Below, in pieces: positions 1,721 to 53,462 of a stretch of DNA of 64,000 nt (position 1 is the first letter of the stretch; each line of letters begins with the position of its first letter). Under the pieces are notes generated by a model that saw only the letters and a list, made by a program, of their open reading frames with translations, did not search any database and was not told the DNA's origin. This DNA is from Candidatus Omnitrophota bacterium. GTDB lineage: Bacteria; Omnitrophota; Gorgyraeia; Gygaellales; Profunditerraquicolaceae. Location: NCBI GenBank assembly GCA_026387255.1, contig JAPLMA010000060.1:465-64464 (forward strand). Direction: 5' to 3'. The translations under genes were made by a program, and so were the position numbers.

Positions 1721-1723
1721 TTT

Positions 1724-2644
1724 ATGTTAAAAAAGAAGATAATTTTTCTCCTTGGGCCTACCGGTGTAGGTAAATCTGCAGTGGCAATCAGCCTGGCTAA
1801 GAAGATCAATGCCCAGATTATCTCTTGTGATTCCATGCAGGTATATCGCTCGATGGATATTCTTACTTCCAAGGTAACTTTTGGACAAAGAAAAAAAGTT
1901 AAGCACCATCTTATAGGCGTGATTAATCCAGAGCAGGAATATAATGTGGCTAAGTATCGCCAGGAGGCATTAGCAATTTGCGATAAACTGTTTAGAAAAG
2001 GTAAAATACCGTTATTTGTAGGAGGTAGCGGGCTTTATTATTCAATGATTGTTGATGGGTTATTTCCGGCAGTGCCGCAAGATAAATTAATTCGCCTAAA
2101 GTTAGAAAAACAGCTTAAGCTAAAGGGGAACAAATATCTTTATCGTTTGTTAACTAAGGTAGATAGCGCTGCGGCTGCCAAAATTCATCCCCATGATGCC
2201 AGAAGGATTATCCGTGCTCTGGAGGTGTACTTAAAAACAGGTACGCGTATTTCCCAATTACAGAAAAATAGGGTTGGTTTGGGGAAGGAGTATGCGGTAA
2301 AGATTTTTGGATTAAATTCAAAAAGACAGTCTCTCTATGATGCAATTGATCAAAGGGTTGATAAAATGTTTAACCGAGGCTTAATCAATGAAGTAAAGCG
2401 TTTGATTAAACATAAATTAAGCCGGACGGCTAAATGTGCTATAGGAATCGGCGAGTTAAAGGGGTATTTTGCCGGAGAATATTCTTTAGCGGAGGCTAAA
2501 CGCCTTATGCAGTGCAATAGCCGGCATTATGCTAAACGCCAACTGACTTGGTTTAGAAAAGACAAACGTATCCAATGGATCAATATTAATAAAATGGAAA
2601 CACCTTCACAATTAGCTCTCAAACTGTGGAAAAAGCTCTCTTAA
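1724..2644 (+). CDS. miaA: tRNA dimethylallyltransferase
   Basis: GPTGVGKS P-loop, IISCDSMQVYR and other MiaA-typical motifs; about 306 aa. Confidence 0.9.
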   Translation: MLKKKIIFLLGPTGVGKSAVAISLAKKINAQIISCDSMQVYRSMDILTSKVTFGQRKKVKHHLIGVINPEQEYNVAKYRQEALAICDKLFRKGKIPLFVGGSGLYYSMIVDGLFPAVPQDKLIRLKLEKQLKLKGNKYLYRLLTKVDSAAAAKIHPHDARRIIRALEVYLKTGTRISQLQKNRVGLGKEYAVKIFGLNSKRQSLYDAIDQRVDKMFNRGLINEVKRLIKHKLSRTAKCAIGIGELKGYFAGEYSLAEAKRLMQCNSRHYAKRQLTWFRKDKRIQWININKMETPSQLALKLWKKLS

Positions 2645-3885
2645 TCAGTATTGTCTTGAAAACGGATAAACATCACTGGCGCATCGAAGATATCTCTTCG
2701 GAGTTAGAGGAGTTGGCGGTATCCGCTTGCGTGGAAGTGGTGGAAAATGTGGTCTGTATTTGTGACCGGGCTACCTCTAATTATCTTATTGGCCGGGGTA
2801 AGGTTGAGGAGATTAGTTTTATCGCTAACCAAGCAGGTGTGGATACAGTAATTTTTAGTCATGATTTAAGTGGCACACAGCAACGTAACCTGGAAGGGGC
2901 TTTAGGCAAAAAAACGATTGATCGTACACAATTAATCCTGGATATATTTTCTCGGCGCGCCAGGAGCCCGGAAGGTAAGATGCAGGTGGAATTGGCTTTG
3001 TTGCAGTATTTATTGCCGCGTCTGACAGGTAAGGGAATAATGCTTTCCGGTTTAGGAGGTGGTATCGGTACGCGTGGCCCTGGGGAAACTAAGTTAGAGA
3101 TGGATCGGCGCCAAATTAGAAGAAAAATCGATAAGTTAAGGGAAGATTTAAGAATATTTCGTCTGCACCGTTTAACGATGAGCAAAAAAAGAAAGGGTAA
3201 TAATTTACCGGTAGTGGCTCTGGTCGGGTATACTAGCGCCGGAAAATCTACGCTCTTAAACCTTTTAACTGCATCAACTCAGATTGTTTCAGAAAAACTG
3301 TTTACTACCTTAGATCCGCTTTCTAAAAGCTTATGCCTTCCTAATGGACAAAATATTATTCTCTCTGATACCGTTGGATTTTTACACGACCTTCCGCATC
3401 ATCTCATCGAAGCCTTTAAGGCCACCTTGGAAGAAGTGATTGATGCGGACTTATTGATTCATGTTTTAGATGTCGCTGATCAGCGCTTAGTTGGGCATAA
3501 TCAAGCCGTACTTAGCGTCTTAGGGGAGTTAGGGGCACTGGATAAGCCGATCTTGGTAGCCTTAAATAAAATTGATTTGGTTACTGACCGTAGCTGGCTG
3601 GAAATCTCCAAAAAAGAATTTCCCAATTCTATTTATATATCCGCTAAAACCGGGGAAAATTTAGACGCTTTAATTGCCGAAATAACCGATTATTTTTCCA
3701 ATCTGATGTTAAGTTTAAAGATTGTAATACCGCATAGCCGTATGGAGTTAGTGGATTTCTTTTATCGGCAGGCTAAAGTAAAGAAGATTGATTATTTACA
3801 GAGCGGGATTAACATTAATTTGGATATTTCCCGGGATCTTTTTAGTAGAATTGAGAATGATAAGGATATAAAAATTATCCGTTAG
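2626..3885 (+). CDS. hflX: GTPase HflX
   Basis: HflX N-domain followed by a G-domain (GYTSAGKSTLLN, DTVGF, NKID). GTG start overlapping the miaA end. Confidence 0.85.
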   Translation: MEKALLISIVLKTDKHHWRIEDISSELEELAVSACVEVVENVVCICDRATSNYLIGRGKVEEISFIANQAGVDTVIFSHDLSGTQQRNLEGALGKKTIDRTQLILDIFSRRARSPEGKMQVELALLQYLLPRLTGKGIMLSGLGGGIGTRGPGETKLEMDRRQIRRKIDKLREDLRIFRLHRLTMSKKRKGNNLPVVALVGYTSAGKSTLLNLLTASTQIVSEKLFTTLDPLSKSLCLPNGQNIILSDTVGFLHDLPHHLIEAFKATLEEVIDADLLIHVLDVADQRLVGHNQAVLSVLGELGALDKPILVALNKIDLVTDRSWLEISKKEFPNSIYISAKTGENLDALIAEITDYFSNLMLSLKIVIPHSRMELVDFFYRQAKVKKIDYLQSGININLDISRDLFSRIENDKDIKIIR

Positions 3886-3912
3886 TTTACCTAACAAAAA
3901 TAATTATTTTAC

Positions 3913-3941
3913 TTGACAAGTTAAAATAGACATGCTAGAGT
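3913..3941 (+). promoter_or_regulatory. Sigma70-like promoter (TTGACA, 17 nt, TGc-TAGAGT) upstream of the HspR-like gene
   Basis: -35 TTGACA at 3913-3918 and an extended -10 tgcTAGAGT at 3933-3941, read directly. A GGAGG RBS lies 6 nt before the ATG at 3963. Confidence 0.5.
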
Positions 3942-3962
3942 TTATTTACCTGGAGGATAGGG

Positions 3963-4220
3963 ATGCCTGTATTTAGCTTTAAGATTGCACCTGAAGAACC
4001 AGTTTATGTTATTAGCGTAGTTTGTAAATTGGTAAATATTCCGATTTGGACTTTGCGGCAGTTAGATAAAGCCGGAGTGGTTCGACCTAAACGCCTAGGC
4101 AAGAAGAGCCGCTTTTATTCACTGAAAGATTTAAAAAGGCTAGAGTATGTGCATTATCTGATGGAAGAAAAGCGGGTTAATATTCACGGATTAAAAATTA
4201 TTTTAGGAAACCAAGAGTAG
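3963..4220 (+). CDS. MerR-family HTH regulator, HspR-like
   Basis: 85-aa MerR-type HTH sitting directly 5' of hrcA-grpE-dnaK-dnaJ, which is the usual position of HspR. Confidence 0.55.
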   Translation: MPVFSFKIAPEEPVYVISVVCKLVNIPIWTLRQLDKAGVVRPKRLGKKSRFYSLKDLKRLEYVHYLMEEKRVNIHGLKIILGNQE

Positions 4221-4237
4221 ATTTTTTTAACCACAAG

Positions 4238-4264
4238 TTAGCACTCTGATGATTTAAGTGCTAA
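4238..4264 (+). promoter_or_regulatory. CIRCE operator (HrcA binding site)
   Basis: TTAGCACTC-N9-AAGTGCTAA, a near-perfect match to the CIRCE consensus TTAGCACTC-N9-GAGTGCTAA, located just 5' of the hrcA promoter. Confidence 0.85.
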
Positions 4265-4269
4265 TTTTA

Positions 4270-4297
4270 TTGACAAAATAGTAGAATATGTTAAAAT
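4270..4297 (+). promoter_or_regulatory. Putative sigma70 promoter of hrcA operon (TTGACA, 16 nt, TAAAAT)
   Basis: Hexamers read from the sequence; it abuts CIRCE. Confidence 0.4.
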
Positions 4298-4343
4298 TAC
4301 AGCTTAGCTTAAGTAGTAAAAAAATCAATCAGGAGACAAAAGA

Positions 4344-5078
4344 GTGCGGACCGTGGATTATAATTCTCGCAGAAAGCAGGTTCTGAATTCGGCGATCAAC
4401 CGTTATATTAAGCATGCGCTTCCGGTGGCTTCAGATGATATTGCCGAAGAGTTTGATTTAAGTTCGGCAACGATTAGGAATATATTTTCTGAACTTGATG
4501 AATTCGGGTACTTAAAACATCCCCATACCTCAGGTGGAAGAGTGCCTACGGATAAAGGGTACCGCTATTATGTGGATTTCCTCATTCAGCAAATTGAACT
4601 TTTGGATAAAGAGAAGCAGTGCATTCTTAAGGACTGCAAAAGAAAATTAAGCCGTCTTGATGATACTCTGGAGAATACATCTGAGGTTATCTCTGAAATT
4701 ACGCATTATGCTGGCATTGTTTCATTCTTACAGTGGCAGGATAAGATATTTTATAAAGGTATTAGTCGCATACTTGATCAGCCGGAGTTTAAGGATGCGG
4801 ATAAGATACGTTTATTAGTTAGGTTGATGGAGGATAAAAGCAAACTCTTAGATATTATTAATCGGGATTTTTCTGGCAAGGTGAAGGTTTATATCGGAAG
4901 CGAATTGGGTTTTCCGGAAATGGAAAATTGCTCTTTAATCGTTTCTAGTTTTAAGTTAAAAAAACAACCTTCGGGTAGGTTGGCCGTATTAGGGCCAATG
5001 CGTATGGAGTATGATCATATTATTCCGACTATGGAATATATCTCTGAAGTTTTGAATCAAATTTTGGAAGATTTTTAG
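4344..5078 (+). CDS. hrcA: Heat-inducible transcription repressor HrcA (short form)
   Basis: GTG start with an AGGAGA RBS. N-terminal winged-helix HrcA signature, CIRCE upstream and grpE downstream. Confidence 0.8.
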   Translation: MRTVDYNSRRKQVLNSAINRYIKHALPVASDDIAEEFDLSSATIRNIFSELDEFGYLKHPHTSGGRVPTDKGYRYYVDFLIQQIELLDKEKQCILKDCKRKLSRLDDTLENTSEVISEITHYAGIVSFLQWQDKIFYKGISRILDQPEFKDADKIRLLVRLMEDKSKLLDIINRDFSGKVKVYIGSELGFPEMENCSLIVSSFKLKKQPSGRLAVLGPMRMEYDHIIPTMEYISEVLNQILEDF

Positions 5079-12652: not shown

Positions 12653-13989
12653 ATGCAGCAAAATACCATCTCAAAAAAGTTCTGGTTGTGCCTATTATTC
12701 CTAGCGGTTATCCTACTTATAATAAATTCTGCCTTTTTTCATCAAAAAATTAATTTAATTGTTTTTTTTGTTTTTAGTTTAAGTGGCATTTTTATTTTTA
12801 CTTTCCTTTTAAAGTTTTATTCCGCTAAATTACTGCTTATCCAATCCGGCATTGAACATAATCAGGAAGGCATAAATATAATCGCTGTAGAGAACAAAAA
12901 AAATCAAGAGCAAGCTATGGCGGTTAAATTAAAAATTACCCGTTACGATAATTTAAAAAAATTAGTCGAAGATCTTAATCAGAGCTTAAAATTAGAGATC
13001 GTGATTCGCGTATTAAGTTCTACGGTTTATACGCTAATCTCAAATAGTGCCGGGGTGGCTCTTTTTTACTTGGTGGATAGTCAGCAGCAAAAACTAAATT
13101 TGGTCTATTCGATGAAAGACGATGCAGAGCTAGTTGTACTTTCTAAAGAAGGTGATCTTTTTGATCAGTGGGTCTTAAGGCATTCCAGCCAGTTAATTAT
13201 TGAGAATCTGAAAAATGATTTTCGGTTTGATGTTGACAGCATGGGTAAAGAAGAGATGCGTTCGGTTTTATCTTTGATTAGTTCGCCCCTGATTAGTAAT
13301 CATTCTTTGTTGGGGCTGTTGCGGCTAGAAAGTAAAAAGAACAATTTTTTTGACCAGGATGATTTACGTTTTCTTGCTTTGGTTAGTGATCTGGGTGCAG
13401 TAGCTATGGAAAACAGCCTGCTTTTTCAGAAAACTCAGGAATTAGCGATTCATGATGATCTGACTGCTTTATATACCCGCGGATATTTTATCGACAGGTT
13501 AAAAGATGAGGTTAGACGCGCTCAGCGCCTGGATCAAGATTTATCGTTAATGATGATCGACATTGATTTTTTTAAGCAATACAATGATAAATTTGGTCAT
13601 ATGATGGGAGATTTAGTGATTTTTTTAAGCAATACAATGATAAATTTGGTCATATGATGGGAGATTTAGTTTTAAAGAAGATGGGGATATTATTAAAAGA
13701 TGCGCTAAGCGAATTTAACCCTTTACTATGCCGTTTTGGAGGAGAAGAATTTTTAGTTATGCTGTCGGGGATAGATAAAAAGAAGGCTTTAATTATCGCC
13801 GAAAAACTGCGCCAGAGAATTCAAAGTGAAAAGATAATCTTGCGACGCCAGAATACATATATCACTGTTTCTATCGGTTTAGCTAGTTTACCCCTGGACA
13901 CAAAAGACCAAGATGAATTGGTCCACAAGGCAGATAAAGCGATGTATGCGGCTAAGGAAAAGGGCAGAAACCAGGTATGTTTAATATAA
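12653..13989 (+). pseudogene. TM-GAF-GGDEF diguanylate cyclase split by a 53-bp tandem duplication (two ORFs, 12653-13657 and 13654-13989)
   Basis: ORF1 ends ...DIDFFKQYNDKFGHMMGDLVIF* and ORF2 begins MMGDLVLKKMG...RFGGEEF. The 53-nt unit gatttttttaagcaatacaatgataaatttggtcatatgatgggagatttagt is present twice in tandem (13565-13617 and 13618-13670). Confidence 0.7.
13565..13670 (+). repeat. Perfect 53-bp tandem duplication inside the GGDEF domain coding sequence
   Basis: Seen directly in the sequence. 53 is not a multiple of 3, so the duplication frameshifts the gene. Confidence 0.9.
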
Positions 13990-14794
13990 TATTATTTTTA
14001 ATTATTCTTATCGCCTTTAGTTTATCTTACAAAGAGATTTTTTCTGTCCGGCTTAAGCGTCAAGAAGCCAGCTATACGCGTTTGGTAAATGAACTTAAGG
14101 TCTTGCATGAATTTAAAAAAAGTTTAGATTTGGAAAATAATCTCCTCAATAAAAGATTTGATGATACTCTGGCGCTCTATGAGTTAACTAAAGATATTTG
14201 TCAGAGTCTGGATGAGGAAAAAGTATTTACAATTTTTAATAAGAATTTAAAGAAGCATATTGACATTGGTGATTGTCAATACATTAGGGATAGCGCGAAT
14301 TTAGTTAAATATAAAAATTATCTGATTCTGCCTTTAATTCTAGAGGGAAATCAAATCGCTGGCTATCTGGCGGTAGATAGAATTTTAGAAACAGACAAAG
14401 AAAAGTTTGGAATTCTTACGCAACAGTTTTTAATTGGGTTAAGAAGGGCGCTTTTTTATCGCCAGGTTCAGGAATTAACGATTACCGATGCGCTGACTAG
14501 TGTTTATTGTCGAAGGTATTTTTTAGAGCGTTTTAGCGAAGAGCTCAAGCGTTCTAAAAAAAATAAATTATCTTTAGCCTTTTTGATGTTAGATATAGAT
14601 AATTTTAAACAATACAATGATCGTTACGGACATTTAGTTGGGGATGCCATATTGCGTCAGGTTTCTAAAATTATTTCGCTGGCGGTTAGGCAAATCGATT
14701 TTACCGGCCGTTACATTTAATTGATCTGGCAGATCAGGCTTTATATTTAGCCAAGGAAACCGGAAAAAATAAAGTTTGTTTCTCACCAACCTAA
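13977..14794 (+). pseudogene. Second GAF-GGDEF paralogue with an internal deletion/frameshift in the GGDEF domain
   Basis: Frame 0 ends ...DRYGHLVGDAILRQ...DFTGRYI*. The GGDEF C-terminus IDLADQALYLAKETGKNKVCF continues in another frame (14720-14794). About 60 residues, including the GGEEF active site, are missing between RY and LADQALY. Confidence 0.55.
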
Positions 14795-33897: not shown

Positions 33898-33926
33898 TTG
33901 CCAAAAATACCTAAAAATAGTAATAT
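33898..33926 (+). promoter_or_regulatory. Promoter TTGCCA, 17 nt, TAATAT (copy 2), positioned to drive the tRNA genes
   Basis: Paralogous to 31318-31346. Confidence 0.55.
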
Positions 33927-34024: not shown

Positions 34025-34098
34025 GGGCCCATAGCTCAGTCGGTTAGAGCAGTTGACTCATAATCAATTGGTCCGGGGTTCGAGTCCCTGTGGGCCCA
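34025..34098 (+). tRNA. tRNA-Met (anticodon CAT); elongator or Ile2-lysidine type not resolved
   Basis: Folded manually. Acceptor GGGCCCA/TGGGCCC, D-stem GCTC/GAGC, anticodon stem GTTGA/TCAAT, loop CTCATAA, T-arm CGGGG-TTCGAGT-CCCTG, discriminator A. No CCA is encoded. Confidence 0.85.
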
Positions 34099-34227
34099 TT
34101 AATAAGCTTGTTGGAACACAATTAGAACCCCGGAACAAAAAGGGGTGTGGGGAAAAATTTTCCCCACGTATTCGGGGTAACAGTCCCGATGGAACATCGG
34201 GACGCCATAGGGGCAGAGCCCCTTTGG

Positions 34228-34261
34228 CAATTGGTCCGGGGTTCGAGTCCCTGTGGGCCCA
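34228..34261 (+). repeat. Perfect 34-nt copy of the tRNA-Met 3' portion (positions ~40-73)
   Basis: caattggtccggggttcgagtccctgtgggccca is identical to 34065-34098. Confidence 0.9.
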
Positions 34262-34272
34262 GAATATATTAA

Positions 34273-34346
34273 GGGCGATTGGCTCAGTTGGTTAGAGCGC
34301 CACATTCACATTGTGGATGTCAGAGGTTCGAGTCCTCTATCGCCCA
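34273..34346 (+). tRNA. tRNA-Val (anticodon CAC)
   Basis: Acceptor GGGCGAT/ATCGCCC, anticodon stem CCACA/TGTGG, loop TTCACAT, T-arm AGAGG-TTCGAGT-CCTCT, discriminator A. Confidence 0.85.
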
Positions 34347-34456
34347 TTATTAAAAAATAAATGGTTGATTCGAGTTTTGTCACAATTGATTTTAACGGGA
34401 ATAGAGCGTCCGCCACTAAAACGTTGGCGGACGGGCGCCAAAGTATTAGTGGCGCC

Positions 34457-34513
34457 CGCCACATTCACATTGTGGATGTCAGAGGTTCGAGTCCTCTATC
34501 GCCCATTATTAAA
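34457..34513 (+). repeat. Perfect 57-nt copy of the tRNA-Val 3' portion (anticodon arm to 3' end plus 8 nt of flank)
   Basis: Identical to 34298-34354. It creates the spurious ORF 34311-34583. Confidence 0.9.
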
Positions 34514-34521
34514 GGAGAAAA

Positions 34522-35241
34522 TTGGCAAACATAGATTTAAAAACCCAGATTATCAGTTTAGTAAAGTTACAAAAATTGGATAGCGAGATTTACGTTTTAG
34601 GAAATGAAAGAGCAGCTGCTCCACAAGAGATCAAGGCTTTAGAAGTAGCTTTTGAACTTAAAAAACAGGATCTCGTGACTTTGGAAAAGAAATCTTTAGA
34701 TTTACAAATTCAGCGTAAAGAAAAAGAACTCCAACTTGCCACAAATGCTGAAGGGGTAAAAAAACTTACCGGGCAGTTGTTCTCTTTAAAGACGAATAAA
34801 GAATTTCAACTTATGCAACAGCAGATTGCAGATGCTAAGGCCGATGGGGAGGTAATTGAAGAAAAAATTTTAATCTCTTTTGAGGAATCGGATGTAATCA
34901 AAGCGCAGATTGACTTAGAAAACTCGAAATTAAAGGATGGGGAAAAGATTTTTTTGCAGCAAAAGAAAATGATTGAATCTCGCAGCGAAGAAATAGGCGG
35001 CCGGTTAAACCAGCTAGATGCTCAAAGAAAACAGATTATTCCTGAGATCGATCCTAAAATGTTGCAGGAATATGAGAGAATTTTACATAGCCGGGATGGT
35101 TTAGCCATGGTTGCGGTCAAAGATAATTCTTGCGGGGGATGCCATATGTTAGTACCACCCCAGGTAATTAATTTGATTAAAATGTACGAACATATTATAA
35201 CTTGTGAAGTTTGTAACCGCATTTTGTATATTCAAGAATGA
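34522..35241 (+). CDS. Zinc-ribbon coiled-coil protein (COG1579 family)
   Basis: Long coiled-coil plus a C-terminal CGGCHM...CEVCNRILY zinc ribbon. Confidence 0.6.
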   Translation: MANIDLKTQIISLVKLQKLDSEIYVLGNERAAAPQEIKALEVAFELKKQDLVTLEKKSLDLQIQRKEKELQLATNAEGVKKLTGQLFSLKTNKEFQLMQQQIADAKADGEVIEEKILISFEESDVIKAQIDLENSKLKDGEKIFLQQKKMIESRSEEIGGRLNQLDAQRKQIIPEIDPKMLQEYERILHSRDGLAMVAVKDNSCGGCHMLVPPQVINLIKMYEHIITCEVCNRILYIQE

Positions 35242-35654
35242 GTCATTTAGAAATTTACATTGATGGCGCATCCAAGGGTAACCCGGGGCATAGCGGGGTG
35301 GGAATAGTAATTTATCAAGAGGGTTTACGGATTAAGAAGATCTCAAATTATATCGGCACGGCTACGAACAATGTTGCTGAATACACCGCTCTAATTTATG
35401 CACTCGAAGAAGCATTATTATTAAAAGCTAAGAGTTTAAAAATTAATACCGATAGCCAGCTTTTAGCCCGGCAGTTAAATAAGATTTATAAAGTTAAACA
35501 TGCTGGTATTATAAATCTATATAATCGAGCGGTGCATCTTTTAACGGGTTTTGAAAAAGTTTTAATTAAACATATACCTCGAGAAGAGAACAGTTTGGCG
35601 GATAAATTGGCAACTGAAGCAGTTAAAGTAGCATTAGGGAAATCTTTGATATAA
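35238..35654 (+). CDS. rnhA: Ribonuclease HI
   Basis: IYIDGASKGNPG..GVGIV with the RNase H fold and length. Confidence 0.85.
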   Translation: MSHLEIYIDGASKGNPGHSGVGIVIYQEGLRIKKISNYIGTATNNVAEYTALIYALEEALLLKAKSLKINTDSQLLARQLNKIYKVKHAGIINLYNRAVHLLTGFEKVLIKHIPREENSLADKLATEAVKVALGKSLI

Positions 35655-36041
35655 GCAGGCAGAAGGTGGCTGCCCGTTATTAATTTAATAACGGGAGGAA
35701 AGTCCGGGCTCCAGAGGATAACGTAATGGGTAACCCCCATCCCGTATATATAATGTATACGGAGGATTTCCGCCACAAATCGTGGTGGACTCGCCAATTT
35801 TTTTGGCGGGAGAGCCACAGAGACGAGTATCCGCGCAAGTGGAGAGGTGAAACGCGGCAATCTCTACGTGGAGCAAAGTAGAATAGGAGATGAGTGCTGA
35901 TCCAGCGCGTTTCCCGTTTTAGGCGGGAAGAAATCTCGGGTAAACTGCTAAAGTTACCGTGGTAACGCGGGAATTGAGAGGAATAGCCACTAATTGATGT
36001 GCAGGCAGGCATCAAGACAGAACCCGGCTTATTCTGCTTGC
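35655..36041 (+). ncRNA. rnpB: RNase P RNA (bacterial type A)
   Basis: P4 strands GGAAAGUCCGGGCUCC (35695-35710) and ACAGAACCCGGCUUA (36017-36031). P1 is formed by 35655-35664 pairing with 36032-36041. GC is elevated relative to the surroundings. Confidence 0.9.
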
Positions 36042-36081
36042 TTTAAATAAAAAGTAAAATAGGGAAAAATGAGGAGGAGTT

Positions 36082-47362: not shown

Positions 47363-50113
47363 ATGTTAAAGCTATTATTTAAATATAACTGCATAGCGCT
47401 AGTTTCTTTAGCGCTATTATTTTTATCCACGACTTCAGTTTTTGCAGAAAGCCAAGCCGTAGATTATCTTTGTGAATTGGGTAAAAGCTTTTATTCTCTG
47501 GGTAAAGCTGAAGATGCCCTTGCGGAATTTAATAAGGTTCTACTGGTTGATCCTGACAATCAGCTGGCCAAAGAGTATATCAGCAAGATATTTAATGAGA
47601 ATTCATCTGCTCAAGAGCTCACATCCCCATTATCAAAGGAAGAGGCCATGAATCAAGAGTTGGCTAAGTTTAAGCAGCAGCAAGTTGCTACTGCTTATCT
47701 TTATGGTTACCCGGATTTAATACCCAAGGAAAAAGAGGTAGATCGGGGATTAAAGGTTGGCCCGTTAAAAATAACCGGAGAGACACAACTTAGTTTTGGA
47801 ATCACTCCAGGTGATTTTATCTGGAAAAGAGCTAACTTTGATTTAAATGAAAAATATAATAGTTGGCGCCCAACGTCATATGCTGGATTTAACCGTGGCT
47901 TTAATACGTATGACCCCAGAATCTATGATTCGCTAAGCGTAAATGTGGATACGGAGAATAAAGATGGTTTAAATTTTCATACTAATGTTACTGTTGATCC
48001 CTGGAGTTTCACCGGAAAAAGTAATAAAATTACAGTTACTAATCTGGCGGGTACTGATTCTGCTGATTTACAGTTGTATTATTGGTCAAATACCGGGTAT
48101 ACAGTAAATAATAATATATTCTCAGTATTAGGCACTACTTTAAATGTGCCTGAAATAAAGGTAGCTGATGGCCAAACCAATGCTATGGATATATCAAATA
48201 CACCGGCAACAAATGCCAATACATTTAGTATTCCAGCATTGAAGATTTATCGTGAATTTCAACCGGTGCGCGAGTTATGGTTAGATTATACTAATGACCA
48301 GATTAAGTTTCGGGCTTTCCCGATTGGGTATCAGGATCAGGCTTATTCATCAGATGACCCTATGGGCATAACCAATCGTCATATCTGGTGGCAGGATAGT
48401 CCATGGCTGCGAAGGTATCTTCCCGGAACCTATCGTTCTGCTGGTACAGCCGCCCCAAGTTTTACTAAAGGCTACTGGGATGATTCGCTTTCATTTTTAT
48501 CTAAAGATAGTACCGGTAAGTATCTTACCGCGTTAAGAGGTTTTTCGTTTTCTTTTGCTCCGCAAGAGCAAACATCTTTTGATACCACGATTGCCACACC
48601 AAAACATCTTTGGCAGGATTACGGAGTGGTCGATAATCTCATCTCGGCCAGCCGCTTAAAACATTACTTTACGGATAGTTTTATGCTCGGTGGCACGTTT
48701 ACTACGCGCACAGGATTTAAAACTGACCCGCAAAAGCTGGATAGTGAAAACTTTGTCGGTGGCCTAGATTTAGGTTATGAGATCATTGATGGCATGAAGG
48801 CGCAGGCAGAAATTTTGACCTCGCAATCTTTTTACGATATGACTAACTCTGATTATAAAACTAAAGCCCGCGGGAATGCCTATTATTTTGCTTTTATCGG
48901 CCGCTATCCACAGAAAAGTATTATGGATTTAAAATACGGTTACGATGAAATTACTATCGATAAGGATGAAAACTATCTTTTGAAAAGCAAGTTTTATCTA
49001 AGTCGTATGGATAAAGGGTTTGATGCATCATTATCTAACTTTAGCAATACGCGTCAGGATACTGGCTGGAGCAGGCATATTCATTTTCGCCGGCCCATGG
49101 AGTATTATTATCTTGGCTTAACTAAACCTGCGGATGCGGATAAATGGGGACAGCTTAATGCCACGCGTATTGGCGATGGTATTGACGCAGGGAGAAATAC
49201 TTTAGGTTTTCGTTTTGAGACATTTTTAGATGATCGATTATATAATCTCTTCGATCTGCGTAATGTACATGATATAAATGGAAAATTTATTGAAAATGTC
49301 GTACGTGATGAGCTTTCGGTAAGAGTCACTGACAAATTAACGGCTAAAGTTTTAGGTATTTATCAAAAACTTCCCAAGACATTGGGTGGTACTGACCCTT
49401 TTATTTATTCCGGCAATACGGGTGATTATTATTTAAATTCAGCCGTTACTGATGGTCAGGACCCCACCATAAAAACAGGATCTTTTGGCTTAAATTACGA
49501 CTTTTTCGATTGGTTAAGTTTAGATGGTATTTATGAACGTACTAATGATTATTCTTTAGGCTATGATAATTTTCCGCGCAATGTCTTAAGAAATGATTCT
49601 ACTTTAAATAGTGTTTATTATCAAAATGATCTGGCTTATCGTTATGTAAACCCGTTTCTCTACCAACAAGAGAATTTCCCTCAAGCGCCATATGAGTTTT
49701 ATAATATTTTTAAAATGGGGTTAAGGGTTTCTCCTCTAGAGAATATGGATATCTACTTAGATTATACACGTAACGAATTCCAGGCTGCAAGTTTAAACTC
49801 GGATAATATGAACCATGTGGGCCTGGAGATGACTTATATGCCGACTCCAAAATTCGGTATGTTGCTTAAGTATATATATTCACGTTGCCAGGATGTTGAC
49901 CGGTTAGTAAGTGGAATCACAGAGCCTGTAGGCCACCACAACTTTTACGGTGAATTCAGGTATCTTCCTTCCAAGGATGACGAAATTATTCTGCAATACG
50001 GAGAAGGCAACTCTAGTGCCATCGGCAATATGAATTTAGATCCCTATGGTGGCAGCATGCTTACTTTAGATACACAGCATATTATCCGCGCTTATTACCG
50101 CCGCAGATTTTAA
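47363..50113 (+). CDS. Large outer-membrane protein (signal peptide, TPR-like N-terminus, beta-barrel-like body, C-terminal Phe)
   Basis: Cleavable signal peptide. The beta-strand-rich Y/G/T/N composition and the terminal ...YYRRRF are typical of OM beta-barrels. 916 aa; no family assigned. Confidence 0.45.
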   Translation: MLKLLFKYNCIALVSLALLFLSTTSVFAESQAVDYLCELGKSFYSLGKAEDALAEFNKVLLVDPDNQLAKEYISKIFNENSSAQELTSPLSKEEAMNQELAKFKQQQVATAYLYGYPDLIPKEKEVDRGLKVGPLKITGETQLSFGITPGDFIWKRANFDLNEKYNSWRPTSYAGFNRGFNTYDPRIYDSLSVNVDTENKDGLNFHTNVTVDPWSFTGKSNKITVTNLAGTDSADLQLYYWSNTGYTVNNNIFSVLGTTLNVPEIKVADGQTNAMDISNTPATNANTFSIPALKIYREFQPVRELWLDYTNDQIKFRAFPIGYQDQAYSSDDPMGITNRHIWWQDSPWLRRYLPGTYRSAGTAAPSFTKGYWDDSLSFLSKDSTGKYLTALRGFSFSFAPQEQTSFDTTIATPKHLWQDYGVVDNLISASRLKHYFTDSFMLGGTFTTRTGFKTDPQKLDSENFVGGLDLGYEIIDGMKAQAEILTSQSFYDMTNSDYKTKARGNAYYFAFIGRYPQKSIMDLKYGYDEITIDKDENYLLKSKFYLSRMDKGFDASLSNFSNTRQDTGWSRHIHFRRPMEYYYLGLTKPADADKWGQLNATRIGDGIDAGRNTLGFRFETFLDDRLYNLFDLRNVHDINGKFIENVVRDELSVRVTDKLTAKVLGIYQKLPKTLGGTDPFIYSGNTGDYYLNSAVTDGQDPTIKTGSFGLNYDFFDWLSLDGIYERTNDYSLGYDNFPRNVLRNDSTLNSVYYQNDLAYRYVNPFLYQQENFPQAPYEFYNIFKMGLRVSPLENMDIYLDYTRNEFQAASLNSDNMNHVGLEMTYMPTPKFGMLLKYIYSRCQDVDRLVSGITEPVGHHNFYGEFRYLPSKDDEIILQYGEGNSSAIGNMNLDPYGGSMLTLDTQHIIRAYYRRRF

Positions 50114-50204: not shown

Positions 50205-53200
50205 TTATTTGAGGAATATGTCAATCTTTTCAACTTGGCGCGATCTTACTTTTTCGGCTAGAAAAGGTGGAATAGTTGCAGAATTAATTTCTGTTGGGCA
50301 GTGATCTTCGAAAATTACAATTTTAGCTATTTTTACTGCGTTCCTGCCAAAAGTATTTTTTCTCTCAGGATTATAATATGTCACAAGAATACGGCTCAAG
50401 AAATTAAATGAATATTTACCATTTTTAGTAAACATCCATCCGGCTAAATTCGGTTTAAACTCTAAATTTAGCTTGCCATGATTATCTAAAACAAACGGAT
50501 TAATGCCAATATTCATGACTAACCAGATATGCAAGAATTCTGCGGTTGATCCAGAGAGCCGAGCGACAAAACCATTTCCATGTAGATTTTTGTCTATAAA
50601 AGCACTACTAACTAGGAATGAAGAGTTCTCCAGTATACTGCGGCCGTATCTTTGTGGGTTTTGAAAAGGGATAAGCACGTTTTTAAATTCTGCATAGAAC
50701 TCTTCGATTAAGCCGGTTTTTAATAACTCTAAAATATATTTATACTCCATATGCAGCCAGATAGATTCATTTTCTAACCATCCAGGGGTAAATACCCGGC
50801 ATCTGCCTATTTCTTCCGGCATACTGTTAAGTGAAGCAGTTACCTTATACATCTTTAGTTTTTTATCAAAAAGCTCACTTTTCTTGGTTGCCTGGTAAAG
50901 TTGAGCAGCTTGTTTTAATTCTTGTGATAACCTTAAGGCGTGCATCTGTCCCGCTAAGAATAGAGGAGCAGGCCTTTGAGTAAACTTCTTAGGCTTTATA
51001 TAATGATCTTTTACTAAATCATATTGGGTAACTTCATTAATAAAATATGAGTAGTATACGCCTTGGGCTTGATTAAAAGCCTTAGCTAAACCGGCTTCAA
51101 CCTTTTTTAAAGCTGCATCTAAAAAAGAAGTTAGATCAGTAATCGGAATATTTATTGAATTCCCAGAGAAGCCTAAGCGCGTATTATGCCGATATTCTTC
51201 TTTGGCGTTGTTACTTCTATCCCAATAACTAAAAGTTTCTTCCGCGAATAGATTAGCCAATTCTTTGATAAATTTAGCTACTTCTTCAGCAATCTCGATC
51301 TGATTAGCTTGAGAGTTCTCTAAAGCTCTTCTTATCATTTTTAACAAACGTTTTAATTCAAACGTTTCGCAACTTGATGAACCAAAAAGAGCAGGTAAAC
51401 CATTAAGCGAATCAAACCAGTTAGGTTTATTCGCCTCCATTTCAATACCCACGCCAAAAGGATCCAGTGAACCCAGTTTATTTGCTGCTAAACACAAAAG
51501 TTTAGCCATTAAAGTAGTATAATAAATTTCACCAGATCCATATAGTGTGCGTAGAAGGTGGGGATTATTTAAACGTTTAGCTAAGAGCTCCTTTTTTTCA
51601 GCATCCGCGATGAGAGAGTGTAACTGCCGAGGCTTGCCATTGTAAAGAAGGTATTTTTCACTACGCGGCCTGACTAATTCAATATTATCGTAAAAAGAGA
51701 AAACCTTTTTGTCAAAGAAAAGCTCGTGGAGTTTTTCTGGGTAAAGATCAAGATAACGCTCAATTAAATCTAAGTTATAAGTCCAGTGGTCCGTCCAAAA
51801 TCCTTCGGCATGTTCAGCTTCTTGAGATTTCGCCGAAGAGGTAAGGATAATATCCAGAAGCTCATCATAAGGGGCTTGGACTGTAATTTTATTTTCTTCA
51901 ATAAAAAAGATAAGCTCACCAGGGGTAAAAGGTTTTTTAAAAAAATGCCCAAGCTTCTCGATGGCTTCTTTTTTAAGCATCCCACCTAAGAGCTTAATTA
52001 AGTCAGCGTTATTATTTAAAAGAAAGTTTTCGCCTTTAATTACCAGTGGATTAAAACCATCGGACTGGATTAAGTTCATAAAGAAAACTATATTTTCATC
52101 TTTAATCTCCGGATTAAACCAAACATCATTACGTCGATTTTGGTTGGTATCCCTGTAGTTACCGTTACCTTGAGAGAAATACGTAGGAGCTAATACAAAT
52201 TTATTGTAATCTCTTTCCAAATCACCGTGTTTACGGGAATAGAGATAAAAAACAGTTTTAGCGGATTCATCTTTCCCCGCCTCTGGCGGGATCCCGCCAG
52301 AGGGTTTAAGAGATGGGCGGGAAAAAACTTCTGGATAGCCACCGCGCATAATGTTATCTAAATAAGTTTGGCTAGTATAACAGTCCAATGCTTTGGAACT
52401 GCTGGTAGTAGCGATATCATTTTTAAGTTTAGCGATAAGCTCATTGTTTTGGGCAAACTTTTTCTGGATATAACCGAATTTCGTAATCTTCTTGACCGAT
52501 TGATTTAAAGTCTTACTATCACGAGCTTGGCCGATTACCGAATAAAAAGTTTGTGCAGTTCGTGGGAGTAGTTTTAAATTTAATAGCAGTAATGCACTGG
52601 GAGTTTTGCTTCTGGTTATCTGTAAAGAAGGATAAGTAAAATTACTCTTTGCTAGGAATAAAGAGGGGTAAGAAAAATCAGTGACTGCGCCAAAAACAGT
52701 CTCTGGATCTACAATCGGCCGGATGAGTTTTGTGGTTGTGCCGTTAAAATTGAAACTTAGATAAAAATTGCCTCCATCAATATGCACAACTTCCGGCCGA
52801 TCAATTGGATCAACTTCCAATTTATAGAAGGGGATATCGTTATCTAGGTTATCAATACTCATCCAGGCCTCAATAGTGCGGCCAAGTTTTTTTAAGAAAA
52901 AATTATGGGTACCAAAAGGGACAATCTGAGGTAGGCCATCAATAAGCTGTATGTCTTTTAGCTTATTACCGGTATTCTCAATACTTACTGTGCGGCTCAA
53001 ACCAGCATAGGTATCATTAGGAATATTAAAATATTCAATCCTTATTTTTATCCCTAATGTAAAATTTTGTTCCTCTAGGATCAGCGCGCTTGAGCTCATG
53101 CGCATAGAATTAAGTGTATGGTATTTTAAGTTAGTGTAACCATTATGAAATGGCTCATAGTAGATGGAGGTATCTGGAGATTTTATTTTTATAAAAGTAC

Positions 53201-53462
53201 GAAAACCATGACTACCGACAAACTGCCAGGCTTTATTCGCGGGAAAAAATTCTAAAATAGCATGGTCTTTATCCTTGATACCAAAACTAGAAATACACTG
53301 GCCACGATTAACGTAGAAAACCCACATGGGAATCCCGTATTTACCAGCAATGCCGGGGAAAAAATTAGCAAAAGGCTTAGCGTAATTATAATTCTCAATT
53401 ACAAATTCACCTTGTTGATTTAAATAATATTTGGCTTTCAATTGATTAGTTTTTGTTTTCAT
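50205..53462 (-). CDS. Large (1085 aa) putative glycan phosphorylase / (alpha/alpha)6-barrel glycoside hydrolase-like protein (GH94/GH36-superfamily-like)
   Basis: Size and a GNYRDTNQN motif reminiscent of the RDxxQD region of cellobiose-phosphorylase-type enzymes. The assignment is tentative. Confidence 0.35.
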   Translation of the reverse strand: MKTKTNQLKAKYYLNQQGEFVIENYNYAKPFANFFPGIAGKYGIPMWVFYVNRGQCISSFGIKDKDHAILEFFPANKAWQFVGSHGFRTFIKIKSPDTSIYYEPFHNGYTNLKYHTLNSMRMSSSALILEEQNFTLGIKIRIEYFNIPNDTYAGLSRTVSIENTGNKLKDIQLIDGLPQIVPFGTHNFFLKKLGRTIEAWMSIDNLDNDIPFYKLEVDPIDRPEVVHIDGGNFYLSFNFNGTTTKLIRPIVDPETVFGAVTDFSYPSLFLAKSNFTYPSLQITRSKTPSALLLLNLKLLPRTAQTFYSVIGQARDSKTLNQSVKKITKFGYIQKKFAQNNELIAKLKNDIATTSSSKALDCYTSQTYLDNIMRGGYPEVFSRPSLKPSGGIPPEAGKDESAKTVFYLYSRKHGDLERDYNKFVLAPTYFSQGNGNYRDTNQNRRNDVWFNPEIKDENIVFFMNLIQSDGFNPLVIKGENFLLNNNADLIKLLGGMLKKEAIEKLGHFFKKPFTPGELIFFIEENKITVQAPYDELLDIILTSSAKSQEAEHAEGFWTDHWTYNLDLIERYLDLYPEKLHELFFDKKVFSFYDNIELVRPRSEKYLLYNGKPRQLHSLIADAEKKELLAKRLNNPHLLRTLYGSGEIYYTTLMAKLLCLAANKLGSLDPFGVGIEMEANKPNWFDSLNGLPALFGSSSCETFELKRLLKMIRRALENSQANQIEIAEEVAKFIKELANLFAEETFSYWDRSNNAKEEYRHNTRLGFSGNSINIPITDLTSFLDAALKKVEAGLAKAFNQAQGVYYSYFINEVTQYDLVKDHYIKPKKFTQRPAPLFLAGQMHALRLSQELKQAAQLYQATKKSELFDKKLKMYKVTASLNSMPEEIGRCRVFTPGWLENESIWLHMEYKYILELLKTGLIEEFYAEFKNVLIPFQNPQRYGRSILENSSFLVSSAFIDKNLHGNGFVARLSGSTAEFLHIWLVMNIGINPFVLDNHGKLNLEFKPNLAGWMFTKNGKYSFNFLSRILVTYYNPERKNTFGRNAVKIAKIVIFEDHCPTEINSATIPPFLAEKVRSRQVEKIDIFLK

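Follow-up and report, generated by a model that had tools for sequence, protein, structure and literature searches.

In the window, i.e., the whole 64-kb stretch of DNA that was analysed, two neighbouring tRNA genes were each found to carry an independent gene-less insertion in their 3' part. The insertion behind tRNA-Met is 163 nt long and the insertion behind tRNA-Val 159 nt. The Met insertion carries a conserved core of ~100 nt, and by pattern search this core was recovered from at least 120 metagenome contigs. We judge it somewhat probable, from sequence comparison, that the Met-type elements are non-autonomous site-specific integrative elements working through a folded single strand, possibly of DNA. 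A literature search found no prior description of such elements, and the Met-type family is apparently new to the literature.

The tRNA locus and its two repeats

The tRNA genes and their copies were placed as follows.

33898-33926, + strand: sigma-70-like promoter candidate TTGCCA-17-TAATAT, 5' of the tRNA operon, by consensus match alone
34025-34098, + strand: full tRNA-Met(CAT) gene (ARAGORN and Rfam, 73.5 bits); the label is ARAGORN's reading of CAT, which may also stand for Ile2
34228-34261, + strand: 34-nt exact copy of tRNA-Met 34065-34098, from the variable loop to the discriminator
34273-34346, + strand: full tRNA-Val(CAC) gene (ARAGORN and Rfam, 70.1 bits)
34457-34513, + strand: 57-nt exact copy of 34298-34354, from tRNA-Val position 25 to 8 nt beyond the 3' end

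The gap between tRNA and copy is 129 nt for Met and 102 nt for Val. Both exact copies and both gaps had been reported in the original prediction and were confirmed. Exact repeats of 34 and 57 nt inside 500 nt are far beyond chance. The Val repeat in full spans 34298-34361 and 34457-34520 (64 nt, 95%, repeat search); its identity block starts at tRNA position 25, just before the anticodon stem, and the exact block 34298-34354 thus extends 8 nt beyond the tRNA-Val gene. The ancestral spacer gaatatat lies directly 3' of the Met copy, and the same spacer was found at empty sites. Directly after the Val copy come the SD and the TTG start codon (34522) with which the Zn-ribbon gene begins. Folding against shuffled sequence gave z = -5.5 for the Met insertion and -4.4 for the Val insertion.

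The fake 90-aa ORF that had been predicted exists at 34311-34583, where it overlaps tRNA-Val, the repeat and, in another frame, the true gene start at 34522. A third tRNA-Val was called by ARAGORN at 34433-34505 and rejected as a gene; it scored 25.1 bits (the Rfam tRNA gathering score is 29 bits), aligned to model positions 6-65 only and had no D arm. This call is a partial tRNA-Val copy and no gene. The tRNAs were the only Rfam families at gathering score in the region, and weak matches to mascRNA, YrlA and Plastid-ycf2 reflect merely the tRNA-like piece or tRNA antisense. As had been predicted, no integrase was found: the 58 ORFs of the window held no recombinase domain, two large ORFs being without any Pfam hit. 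No terminator-like site was found on the + strand from the promoter candidate to the Zn-ribbon gene.

The window belongs to an Omnitrophota chromosome. The order tRNA-Met, tRNA-Val, Zn-ribbon gene was conserved in 23 related Omnitrophota loci; the Met-Val spacer measured 6-23 nt in 12 of them and 118-426 nt in 8. The duplications had been read as attL/attR-type, and this reading is borne out by empty sites in relatives and by occupied relatives, where the downstream copies adjoin the ancestral flanks. The empty locus L014 and the locus L016 with one copy are 96% identical downstream; L012 carries two tandem copies and L013 zero. Among near-identical genomes, copy number was 0, 1 or 2. Decayed tRNA-Val fragments of foreign alleles were found in L001 and L018. 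It had also been suggested that degenerate repeats in relatives would mark an old and fixed feature. One decayed copy is indeed present, in L007. In most relatives, however, the site is empty or the copy is exact, which makes the feature polymorphic rather than old and fixed.

Structure of the insertions and the Met-type family

The Met insertion is divided into the following parts.

34099-34124, + strand: AT-rich linker, the position of cargo genes in relatives
34125-34136, + strand: 5' arm GAACCCCGGAAC, complementary to 34231-34244, with which it forms helix P1 (inverted repeat of 14 nt, 93%)
34127-34227, + strand: Met-type conserved core (covariance model R1, 100.6 bits, E = 8e-25)
34137-34145, + strand: purine tract 1 (AAAAAGGGG), which mirrors the 5' strand of P2 and would serve as the third strand in triplex T1
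34148-34166, + strand: hairpin P2 (TGGGGAAAA-A-TTTTCCCCA), with compensatory changes in 5/7 pairs
34174-34183, + strand: tract 3 (GGGGTAACAG), invariant except for one R position
34184-34202, + strand: variable hairpin P3 (TCCCGATGGAACATCGGGA)
34204-34228, + strand: hairpin P4 GCCA-T-AGGGG CAGAG CCCCT-T-TGGC, in which an internal T.T mismatch is conserved

The core matched by model R1 is present as a single copy in the window. The partner of the arm, 34231-34244, lies in the downstream Met copy and takes in its variable loop, the 5' strand of its T-stem and TTC, and P1 in the window has 10 bp (34125-34134 with 34235-34244) with no wobble. The insert had been described as stable hairpins. The three hairpins quoted are present, i.e., P2, P3 and hairpin A of the Val insertion (34407-34433), but the description fell short: the insert also has a defined scaffold, mirror-repeat covariation and a target-complementary 5' arm.

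The matches listed for model R1 comprise about 125 copies with scores of 47-107 bits, and in 83 contigs a same-strand tRNA ends at most 356 nt upstream. The contigs bearing the core range in GC content from 37% to 68%. Among the matches listed, 81 elements target 13 isotypes, each carrying a copy of its own neighbour's 3' end, and the scaffold has the orientation of the tRNA in 81/81 cases. The tmRNA is also targeted (L061 and L130). Counted from the 3' end, positions 2-17 had an identity to the neighbouring tRNA of 0.96-1.00, against 0.77 and 0.60 for positions 18 and 19; because identity falls beyond the last 17 nt, a common junction was placed inside the T-loop. The junction shared by the family is T-loop 56|57, which leaves 17 nt of the tRNA on its 3' side. 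Beyond this block, on the upstream side, tRNA-like sequence (24-34 nt in many members) is isotype-specific and imperfect, and in L016, L018, L039 and L030 the tRNA copies differ on the scaffold side, as hybrid att sites predict.

The arms are tRNA T-arm or variable-loop sequences, e.g., GGATTCGAACC and CCCGACCC. Among the matches listed, the best P1 helices had a mean of 8.45 bp, and their score was 7.87 against 6.62 +/- 0.11 for partner-shuffled arms, a kind of statistic that sequence relatedness inflates. Arm pairing was target-specific against shuffled partners, i.e., target-mimicking inverted arms are present.

The G-run of tract 1 equals that of P2 in 81/96 copies among the matches listed. 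The T1 mirror run averaged 6.39 against 4.58 +/- 0.13 in shuffled sequence, with a maximum of 5.07 in 500 shuffles, and the same inflation by relatedness applies. The mirror covariation extends to interrupted patterns, e.g., GAGAGGG|GGGAGAG. At T2, three-way covariation was seen in the 100 copies listed, with G/G/A in 44 and A/T/T in 47, a variation fixed in part by the search pattern; the R position of tract 3 covaries with the mismatch within P4. A class I purine motif has a 5' reverse-Hoogsteen purine strand, a purine strand and a pyrimidine strand, stems of 6-15 nt, loops of 1-6 nt and the triplets G.G-C and A(T).A-T (PMC4666352). By this ITxF definition, T1 has the strand order, the triplets and 3-nt loops of class I; T2 has the order and triplets, and its first loop is the P3 hairpin, longer than 6 nt. 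The core would therefore hold two putative intrastrand purine-motif triplexes. An alternative pairing of tract 1 with CGCUUUC covers just 2-3 G residues and was discarded because it leaves the matched G-run lengths and the interrupted mirror patterns unexplained. RNAalifold offered an alternative in which GGGGU of tract 3 pairs with RCGCC, in invariant columns.

Tandem arrays were found in L012, L030, L047, L048, L057, L062, L072, L112 and L133. As cargo, a 3.7-kb Fic/HTH island in L102 is bracketed by two scaffold copies, and GIY-YIG ORFs were found in L033 and L044, two of the loci inspected for ORFs. A further large insertion (2.8 kb, L106) is flanked by tRNA fragments. No integrase was found in the cargo-bearing copies inspected.

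The Val insertion has these parts.

34347-34396, + strand: AT-rich linker
34397-34408, + strand: degenerate inverted copy (GGGAATAGAGCG) of the Val-repeat start (8/12 match to the reverse complement)
34407-34433, + strand: hairpin A (CGTCCGCCAC-taaaacg-TTGGCGGACG)
34434-34456, + strand: hairpin B (GGCGCCAA-agtattag-TGGCGCC)

The degenerate copy is contained in an inverted repeat of 36 nt and 75% complementarity (34394-34429 / 34436-34471). The Val layout follows the Met plan with a much simpler scaffold, i.e., linker, weak inverted arm, two GC hairpins and tRNA copy. Hairpin A is 96% identical over 27 nt to P3 of the Met-type element in L050. Hairpins of type B recur in many Met-type scaffolds, where they form P3, and in an RNase P RNA insert, where the second hairpin is of this type. 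The two-hairpin A+B module also occurs inside the RNase P RNA gene and so could exist as RNA. The CGCCA...TGGCG hairpins were considered as a REP-like genome-wide repeat and rejected, being found only in RNase P RNA, scaffolds and tRNA flanks.

Origin of the insertions

A family member comprises an AT-rich linker, in which cargo can sit, a 5' arm, the conserved scaffold of ~100 nt and, at the 3' end, a piece derived from the tRNA. Insertion would leave the tRNA whole on the upstream side and displace its original 3' end to the downstream side, like attL and attR. The integration enzyme would be provided in trans, and the scaffold would work in cis as a folded single strand with two fold-back units. 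In each unit, a 5' purine tract would mirror the purine strand of the next hairpin, with GNA triloops at the tips, and helix P1 (5' arm and tRNA-derived piece) would be a duplex copy of the target T-arm region. The active form may be a small ssDNA circle that undergoes one strand exchange followed by replication, like CTXphi and integron cassettes. The tandem arrays would be compatible with excision to a circular form. Folded single-stranded att sites resolved by replication have precedent (PMC3458562, PMC3442271). Comparative patterns suggest mobility by site-specific recombination; the single-stranded DNA form and the triplexes are likewise inferred.

The proposal of folded-strand integration meets several observations that speak against it. 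Some scaffolds lie directly 5' of a complete tRNA/tmRNA or ORF and have no 3' fragment (L040, L060, L098, L107, L026, L075 and L095), which the att model does not predict. Retargeting to 13 isotypes needs a change in both arms. The plasmid and phage collections gave no blastn matches, and a scan of IMG/VR with the full pattern gave 0 matches; two 19-mer matches (L146 and L147) were rejected, having neither a model R1 match nor a tRNA.

The alternative to which we give a low but appreciable probability is that the scaffold works as a structured non-coding RNA, which is transcribed together with the tRNAs and has spread by duplication or recombination between tRNA loci, its DNA-like features being coincidental. 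Such an RNA could serve in processing or insulation, act as a decoy of tRNA ends or be an sRNA with a tRNA-like 3' end, and the 5' arm could mask the duplicated tRNA 3' part and prevent its mispairing with the real pre-tRNA. The elements probably share a transcription unit with the tRNAs, in which no terminator precedes them, and would therefore be transcribed; the constant co-orientation of scaffold and tRNA and the helices with covariation and wobble pairs agree with a transcript. RNA and ssDNA structure are bioinformatically indistinguishable (PMC5737381), and covariation, G.U/G.T pairs and strand specificity fit RNA equally. The only Rfam family with recurrent sub-threshold matches is, moreover, the 'sRNA' motif Clostridiales-2 (21-35 bits). 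In some copies the scaffold directly joins the 5' end of a complete tRNA or tmRNA as ...GAGTGAC|tRNA, where RNase P would be expected to cut, and the A+B module within RNase P RNA points the same way. RNA function alone, however, does not explain why each element carries its own neighbour's last 17 or more nt with a sharp common boundary, why genomes of 96% identity differ in presence and tandem copy number, or why cargo islands lie between scaffold copies. The mirror covariation fits a class I purine-motif triplex, a form that intrastrand RNA reportedly does not adopt (PMC4666352). Among the matches listed, 53 loops are GNA triloops and 7 are GNRA tetraloops, and d(GCGNAGC) mini-hairpins are DNA motifs (PMC13037366, PMC3201870). 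An RNA role is compatible with mobility, as an element may be both mobile and transcribed.

An origin as miniature transposons is improbable; in this case a transposase or a casposase-like enzyme would make a 17-nt staggered cut, and the duplicated tRNA end would be a target-site duplication. Such an origin would account for the sharp, near-constant minimal duplication of 17 nt, the inverted arms at both scaffold ends, the tandem arrays and the absence of arm-type sites and integrase. The isotype-specific imperfect match beyond 17 nt, however, indicates an element-borne att site and not a target-site duplication, and the 5' arm has its complement in the target-derived piece itself instead of in a separate terminal repeat. 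A linked transposase was not found; the lone candidate, an IS481-like DDE gene in L071, is a secondary insertion.

The original prediction had left two readings side by side, deletion relics of islands and miniature non-autonomous integrative elements mobilised in trans. For the Met insertion the data favour the second. That the insertions are what remained of larger genomic islands after loss of integrase and cargo is very doubtful, although larger insertions with the same flanks (L102 and L106), the decayed foreign-allele fragments in L001 and L018, and the Val insertion, which has no full-length homologue in ~0.98 Mb (the window and the loci compared with it), agree with it. Random deletion would not leave one covarying ~100-nt core in at least 120 independent contigs; as this core stands behind 13 isotypes and tmRNA, the Met insertion is no relic. 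The larger versions lack an integrase too, and the repeats of the window are exact. It is reasonable to keep the relic reading for the Val insertion only. The Val insertion also gave no match to model R1, and with this and its missing homologue the earlier idea that the same event happened twice was given up. An assembly artefact through collapsed or chimerically joined repeats, which the probable metagenome origin of the window could suggest, has a negligible probability because the same architecture with differing sequences was found in more than 100 contigs and assemblies from many projects and assemblers, including six related genomes.

Relation to known systems and significance

To our knowledge, every well-understood integration into a tRNA gene uses a known recombinase, carried or borrowed, and a sequence-specific att site. 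Sublocation classes of the tRNA sites were reportedly defined by Williams in 2002 (see PMC9897764). Integrative elements of tRNA and tmRNA genes, i.e., prophages, ICEs and islands, have the complete gene at one border and a partial copy of its 3' part at the other, attL and attR. The present elements resemble them in the complete tRNA and displaced 3' fragment as direct repeats around the insert, in an identity block that starts at the T-loop for the Met family and close to the anticodon arm for Val, and in tmRNA targeting, tandem occupancy of one site and partial copies mis-called as tRNA. Unlike those elements of 5-150 kb, they measure 130-200 nt and lack an integrase. A single conserved core is used at 13 isotypes among the matches listed, and a structured scaffold and target-complementary arm replace arm-type protein-binding sites.

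Integrase-less recombination of folded ssDNA is known from CTXphi/IMEX through XerCD (PMC3442271, PMC4246890) and from integron cassettes with attC (PMC3458562, PMC5027507). Shared with these are the lack of an own recombinase, strict strand and orientation specificity and tandem arrays. Inverted arms could likewise refold a duplex target copy around a central structure, and junction-side heterology would be tolerable with a single strand exchange followed by replication. In contrast to these systems, the target is the tRNA T-arm and not dif or attI, no dif-like or GTTRRRY/RYYYAAC core and no linked IntI or Xer gene was found, and the centre is a conserved 100-nt scaffold instead of a variable loop, its single-strandedness here being deduced.

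Bacterial intrastrand triplex repeats are represented by BoxC/TMECO in the ITxF classes (PMC4666352). Like them, the scaffold has purine third, purine and pyrimidine strands on one strand, 3-nt loops and stems of 7-9 nt, and both are repeated elements tied to genome rearrangement. The T1 strand order is that of the class I purine motif, whereas TMECO is class II. TMECO is a dispersed 37-nt repeat with no tRNA link; here two triplex units would sit in a larger scaffold with target duplication.

The Clostridiales-2 RNA motif is not known to have a tRNA link. It is the sole Rfam family repeatedly aligning full-length to the scaffold, and the two share an A-rich lead, a GGGG tract, a GGGG/CCCC hairpin, GGGU..CAG and a hairpin. 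Membership was rejected, as the scores of 21-35 bits (best 35.4 in L062, window 25.6) lie below the gathering score of 58.6 and the model ends before P4. The motif is RF02937, with function not established (Weinberg et al. 2017, PMC5737381).

MITEs and REP/REPIN are also short, non-coding, structured, repeated and mobilised in trans. Those have short or non-specific targets, 2-10 bp duplications and genome-wide dispersal, unlike the one copy in 64 kb and strict tRNA/tmRNA association seen here. A MITE or IS-derived identity was rejected on that single copy and on a duplication that is a 17-34 nt tRNA-specific block with an imperfect upstream extension. The core seems to fit neither hammerhead, twister, pistol, hatchet and HDV-like ribozymes, nor group I/II intron parts, retron msr/msd and common riboswitches, nor TnpB/IscB guide RNAs and IS110 bridge RNAs.

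A more far-reaching version of the proposal, which we hold to be possible and rather unlikely, makes the Met-type elements a new class of mobile DNA. Each would be a folded single strand of 130-200 nt with two purine-motif triplexes, GNA mini-hairpins and a duplex T-arm mimic, making a single strand transfer at T-loop 56|57 of essentially any tRNA/tmRNA. Catalysis would fall to a host enzyme that has so far had no tie to mobile DNA, or to the scaffold itself, and the linker would be a general cargo slot of integrase-less islands.

The tRNA genes are classic landing sites of mobile DNA. The present family has a single ~100-nt non-coding core, no enzyme gene and one T-loop junction, and it sometimes brackets kilobase cargo. 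In practice, such copies lead to spurious tRNA and ORF calls, and island finders that depend on an integrase are confounded by them. For an intrastrand purine-motif triplex that is conserved and under selection, the core is a natural test case; until now this structure has been tied only to dispersed repeats such as BoxC. If mobile as proposed, the element would be the smallest site-specific integrative element known, and it would explain the integrase-less 'islands' beside tRNA genes in uncultured phyla.

Insertions behind tRNA-Met and tRNA-Val

The locus carries two tRNA genes, each followed by an exact copy of its own 3' part.

Features of the locus and its surroundings
33898-33926: promoter-like site
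34025-34098, + strand: tRNA-Met(CAT), by ARAGORN and Rfam
34273-34346, + strand: tRNA-Val(CAC), by ARAGORN and Rfam
34397-34408: degenerate inverted copy of the repeat start, within a 36-nt, 75% inverted repeat
35653-36047: RNase P RNA (class A, 160.7 bits)

The final 34 nt of tRNA-Met (34065-34098) recur at 34228-34261, and 57 nt (34298-34354), i.e., from position 25 of tRNA-Val to 8 nt beyond the gene end, recur at 34457-34513. The copies and gaps of 129 nt (Met) and 102 nt (Val) reported in the original prediction were confirmed by these coordinates, and the hairpins quoted there are present in the sequence. Both inserts fold far more stably than shuffled sequence (z = -5.5 and -4.4). The 90-aa ORF at 34311-34583, already considered fake, arises as a by-product of tRNA and repeat. 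A third 'tRNA-Val' called by ARAGORN (34433-34505) was rejected as a partial copy, since its 25.1 bits fall short of the gathering score of 29 and it has no D arm.

The window is a housekeeping chromosome segment encoding DnaK/DnaJ/GrpE, primase, sigma-70, RuvABC, YebC, RNase H, aromatic amino-acid synthesis, GatAB, and TsaD. No recombinase, transposase, or reverse transcriptase domains were found among the 58 ORFs of the 64 kb. Because no + strand terminator was found from the tRNAs through the inserts to the Zn-ribbon gene (34522), both inserts are probably transcribed. Elsewhere, three successive ORFs (12653-13657, 13654-13989, and 13977-14720) each contain parts of GGDEF domains, and the first two resemble a single diguanylate cyclase gene interrupted by a frameshift. 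Two very large ORFs, 47363-50113 (+, 916 aa) and 50205-53462 (-, 1085 aa), showed no Pfam match. The latter is the sole long minus-strand gene, and the GC skew falls to about zero around 50-52 kb.

Related loci provided the comparison with empty sites. With the Zn-ribbon protein, 24 Candidatus Omnitrophota loci were retrieved (57-86% identity), and tRNA-Met, tRNA-Val, and the Zn-ribbon gene were syntenic in 23 of them. The Met-Val spacer was 6-23 nt in 12 loci, i.e., empty, and 118-426 nt in eight; the spacer between tRNA-Val and the gene was 17-34 nt in 13 loci and reached 278 nt in others. In the window, gaatatat... follows the Met copy and ttattaaaggag with the start codon follows the Val copy, as they directly follow the tRNAs at empty sites. 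Because the downstream copies adjoin the empty-site flanks, the segments are insertions of 163 and 159 nt with the tRNA 3' part duplicated.

The conserved core of the Met insertion was also found behind tRNA-Met in the comparison loci L004, L007, L012 (two in tandem), L016, and L018, each followed by its own tRNA-Met 3' end. L014 (empty) and L016 (one copy) share 96% identity over the downstream 1100 nt; L013 is empty, and L012 holds two copies and the beginning of a third. The locus is a hot spot for small insertions. A second, tandem-prone repeat family flanks the same tRNAs, each unit being an AT hairpin and then CTTCGxxCG...AAGxxCGAAGGAG (L004 3499-3600; L008 3315-3420 and 3769-4000; L009 969-1246; L020 3706-3856), and some of its copies contain CTGACGAG-like strings.

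The Met-type family

At least 120 metagenome contigs match the core pattern GGGGTRACAG N4-34 CCANAGGGGCANAGCC, and 83 among the matches listed have a same-strand tRNA ending within 356 nt upstream. The covariance model R1, built from 66 copies, scored 100.6 bits on window 34127-34227, detected no second Met-type copy within the 64 kb, and recognized about 125 copies in metagenome loci. Among the matches listed, 81 non-redundant elements lie behind 13 tRNA isotypes, i.e., Ser (20), Arg (15), Met (13), Lys (10), Thr (10), Gln (4), Ala (3), and one each of Trp, Phe, Asn, Gly, Glu, and Cys, and each copies the 3' end of its own neighbour. tmRNA genes are likewise targeted (L061, L130). Tandem units occur in at least nine loci. 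Since the GC content of the element loci spans 0.37-0.68, the family is unlikely to be restricted to a single lineage. No copies were found in phage, plasmid, and IMG/VR collections.

Parts of the element, in order on the tRNA strand
tRNA gene
AT-rich linker, 10-60 nt
5' arm
purine tract 1: AAAGGGG
hairpin P2: GGGGAAA...TTTCCCC
junction between P2 and tract 3: CGYTTTC
tract 3: GGGGTRACAG
P3: variable hairpin
hairpin P4: CCA-K-AGGGG CAGAG CCCCT-W-TGG
optional module: GGAGCGA-hairpin-GAGCGAC or GAAATTTGC...GCAAATTT
tRNA-derived piece

In the window, the Met copy has the minimal form and lacks the optional module. Compared with the tRNA next to it, the downstream piece shows an identity of 0.96-1.00 for positions 2-17 counted from the 3' end, 0.77 and 0.60 for positions 18-19, 0.65-0.88 through position 24, and values near background beyond. 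The 17th nucleotide from the tRNA end is position 57; therefore, the boundary common to the isotypes lies in the T-loop between C56 and R57, and one subfamily has an extra hairpin (TAGGCCGAAGGCCGG) exactly there. Mismatches between the two tRNA-end copies fall on the scaffold side (L016, L018, L039, L030), unlike the pattern of a simple target-site duplication. This is the pattern expected of hybrid att sites, in which a chromosomal site would have recombined with an imperfect element-borne copy.

The fold of the scaffold is conserved. P2 shows compensatory changes at pairs 23-49 (GC 44, AU 7, CG 5, UA 4, UG 3) and 24-48 (UA 45, CG 16, UG 4). The 5' arm is complementary to the first nucleotides of the tRNA-derived piece, with best helices of 8.45 bp on average and 10 bp in the window; the helix score was 7.87, against 6.62 +/- 0.11 with arms swapped among elements and 5.69 with shuffled arms. 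In T-arm-type members, this helix equals the double-stranded sequence of the T-arm of the tRNA gene.

Tract 1 mirrors the 5' strand of P2, with equal G-runs (2/2, 3/3, 4/4, 5/5) in 81 of 96 copies and interrupted patterns mirrored as well, i.e., GAGAGGG/GGGAGAG and GAGGGGG/GGGGGAG (tract 1/P2). The mean mirror run was 6.39, against 4.58 +/- 0.13 in 500 partner shuffles (maximum 5.07). Watson-Crick pairing cannot account for a mirror repeat; an antiparallel purine third strand (G.G-C, A.A-T) would require one. The 5' strand of P4 is mirrored by tract 3, whose variable R changes together with the K.W mismatch of P4 (G/G/A 44, A/T/T 47, n = 100 copies). The third, purine, and pyrimidine strands follow one another in the order by which PMC4666352 defines a class I purine-motif intrastrand triplex. 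Triloops are commonest at the hairpin tips, i.e., 53 GNA (C(GAA)G alone 33) against seven GNRA tetraloops.

Cargo can sit in the linker, and no integrase is encoded in the cargo-bearing versions (L102, L106, L033, L044, L071). In L102 (oriented, 645-4760), a 3.7-kb island with HTH_3, Fic/DOC, and two unknown ORFs lies behind tRNA-Gln(CTG), bracketed by two copies of the scaffold that are both followed by the 3' end of tRNA-Gln. In L106, a segment of 2.8 kb precedes a tRNA-Ser fragment and a mini-element. Two independent elements, L033 (oriented, 2302-2559) and L044 (oriented, 1409-1759), contain small GIY-YIG nuclease ORFs between tRNA-Asn and scaffold, which may be cargo or may point to a nuclease acting in trans. 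L071 (oriented, 1464-2711; identical in sequence to L041) has an IS481-like DDE transposase (rve, HTH) between tRNA-Lys and scaffold, most simply a secondary insertion.

The Val insertion

The original prediction had taken the two insertions as the same event occurring twice. This is not supported, as the Val insertion showed no match to model R1, and no full-length relative was found in about 0.98 Mb (window and fetched loci). Its plan is the same, i.e., AT-rich linker, degenerate inverted copy, GC hairpins A and B, and tRNA copy. Hairpin A matches the P3 hairpin of the L050 scaffold with 96% identity over 27 nt, and hairpin B is the common P3 type of Met-type scaffolds.

L008 has the A+B pair upstream of its tRNA-Val, beside 17 nt copied from the 5' end of the tRNA. 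Downstream of the resident gene, L001 (about 3920-3945, CCAC-type anticodon stem) and L018 (about 3935-3982, GCATT-type acceptor) carry fragments of foreign tRNA-Val alleles, which would indicate past replacement of the gene. Because of this pair and these fragments, the tRNA-Val site is regarded as struck repeatedly by different small elements. The same two-hairpin module was found in the RNase P RNA at about 35768-35812, between P10 and P11 (CCGCCAC-aaatc-GTGGTGGA and CGCCAA-ttttt-TTGGCGGG). The window, L003, L006, L014, L016, and L022 have this insert, L010-L013 and L023 lack it, and other inserts take its place elsewhere.

Proposed mechanism and nature of the element

A small circle of tRNA piece, linker, 5' arm, and scaffold may recombine with the tRNA gene at the T-loop. 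The circle would be cut inside its tRNA-derived piece and joined to the chromosomal gene at the matching position. The product would be a complete tRNA with an element-derived end, then linker, 5' arm, scaffold, the beginning of the element-borne piece, and the original chromosomal end with its flank, an order that would match the observed one exactly. In a single-stranded circle, the 5' arm would fold onto the tRNA piece and recreate a duplex core site, similar to the folding of CTXphi, with two inverted dif-like sites, and of attC sites (PMC3442271, PMC3458562). Single strand exchange followed by replication would tolerate heterology and an extra hairpin beside the junction (PMC3442271, PMC3458562).

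Some loci do not fit. In L040, L060, L098, and L107, a complete tRNA or tmRNA gene begins immediately after the scaffold 3' end (...GAGTGAC or GAACGAC); the L098 scaffold has duplicates of some 45 nt of the tmRNA leader on both sides. In L026 (441-600), L075, and L095, a scaffold without tRNA piece lies directly upstream of SD and ATG, and the 5' arm pairs with upstream GGTTCTTTC instead. The ORF start in L026 resembles SpoVG by eye. How one core has matching arms for 13 isotypes is not accounted for by the mechanism.

GCGNAGC/GNA mini-hairpins are exceptionally stable DNA motifs (PMC13037366, PMC3201870), and purine-motif triplexes of this order reportedly do not form in RNA (PMC4666352). Such hairpins and the triplex order favour a folded DNA strand. 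Against it stand the probable transcription and the recurrence of the Val-insertion module within RNase P RNA. The sRNA motif Clostridiales-2 was the sole Rfam family with recurrent weak matches (21-35 bits; gathering score, 58.6), with sub-threshold full-length alignments at window 34133-34215 and in L012, L016, L026, L055, L062, and L064; it may be a distant relative of the scaffold. Comparative analysis is no reliable discriminator of ssDNA and RNA structure (PMC5737381). Provided that the element is mobile, a single-stranded DNA form therefore has a roughly even chance.

Between the two origins first proposed, a deletion relic is disfavoured for the Met insertion by the large family with its conserved fold; the Val insertion, outside the family model, may be a relic. 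No earlier description was found in the literature and Rfam 15 has no family for the Met type, which is apparently undescribed. The Met insertion is supported as a miniature non-autonomous integrative element, and this reading extends to its large family, in which the junction is defined and the conserved fold is unusual.
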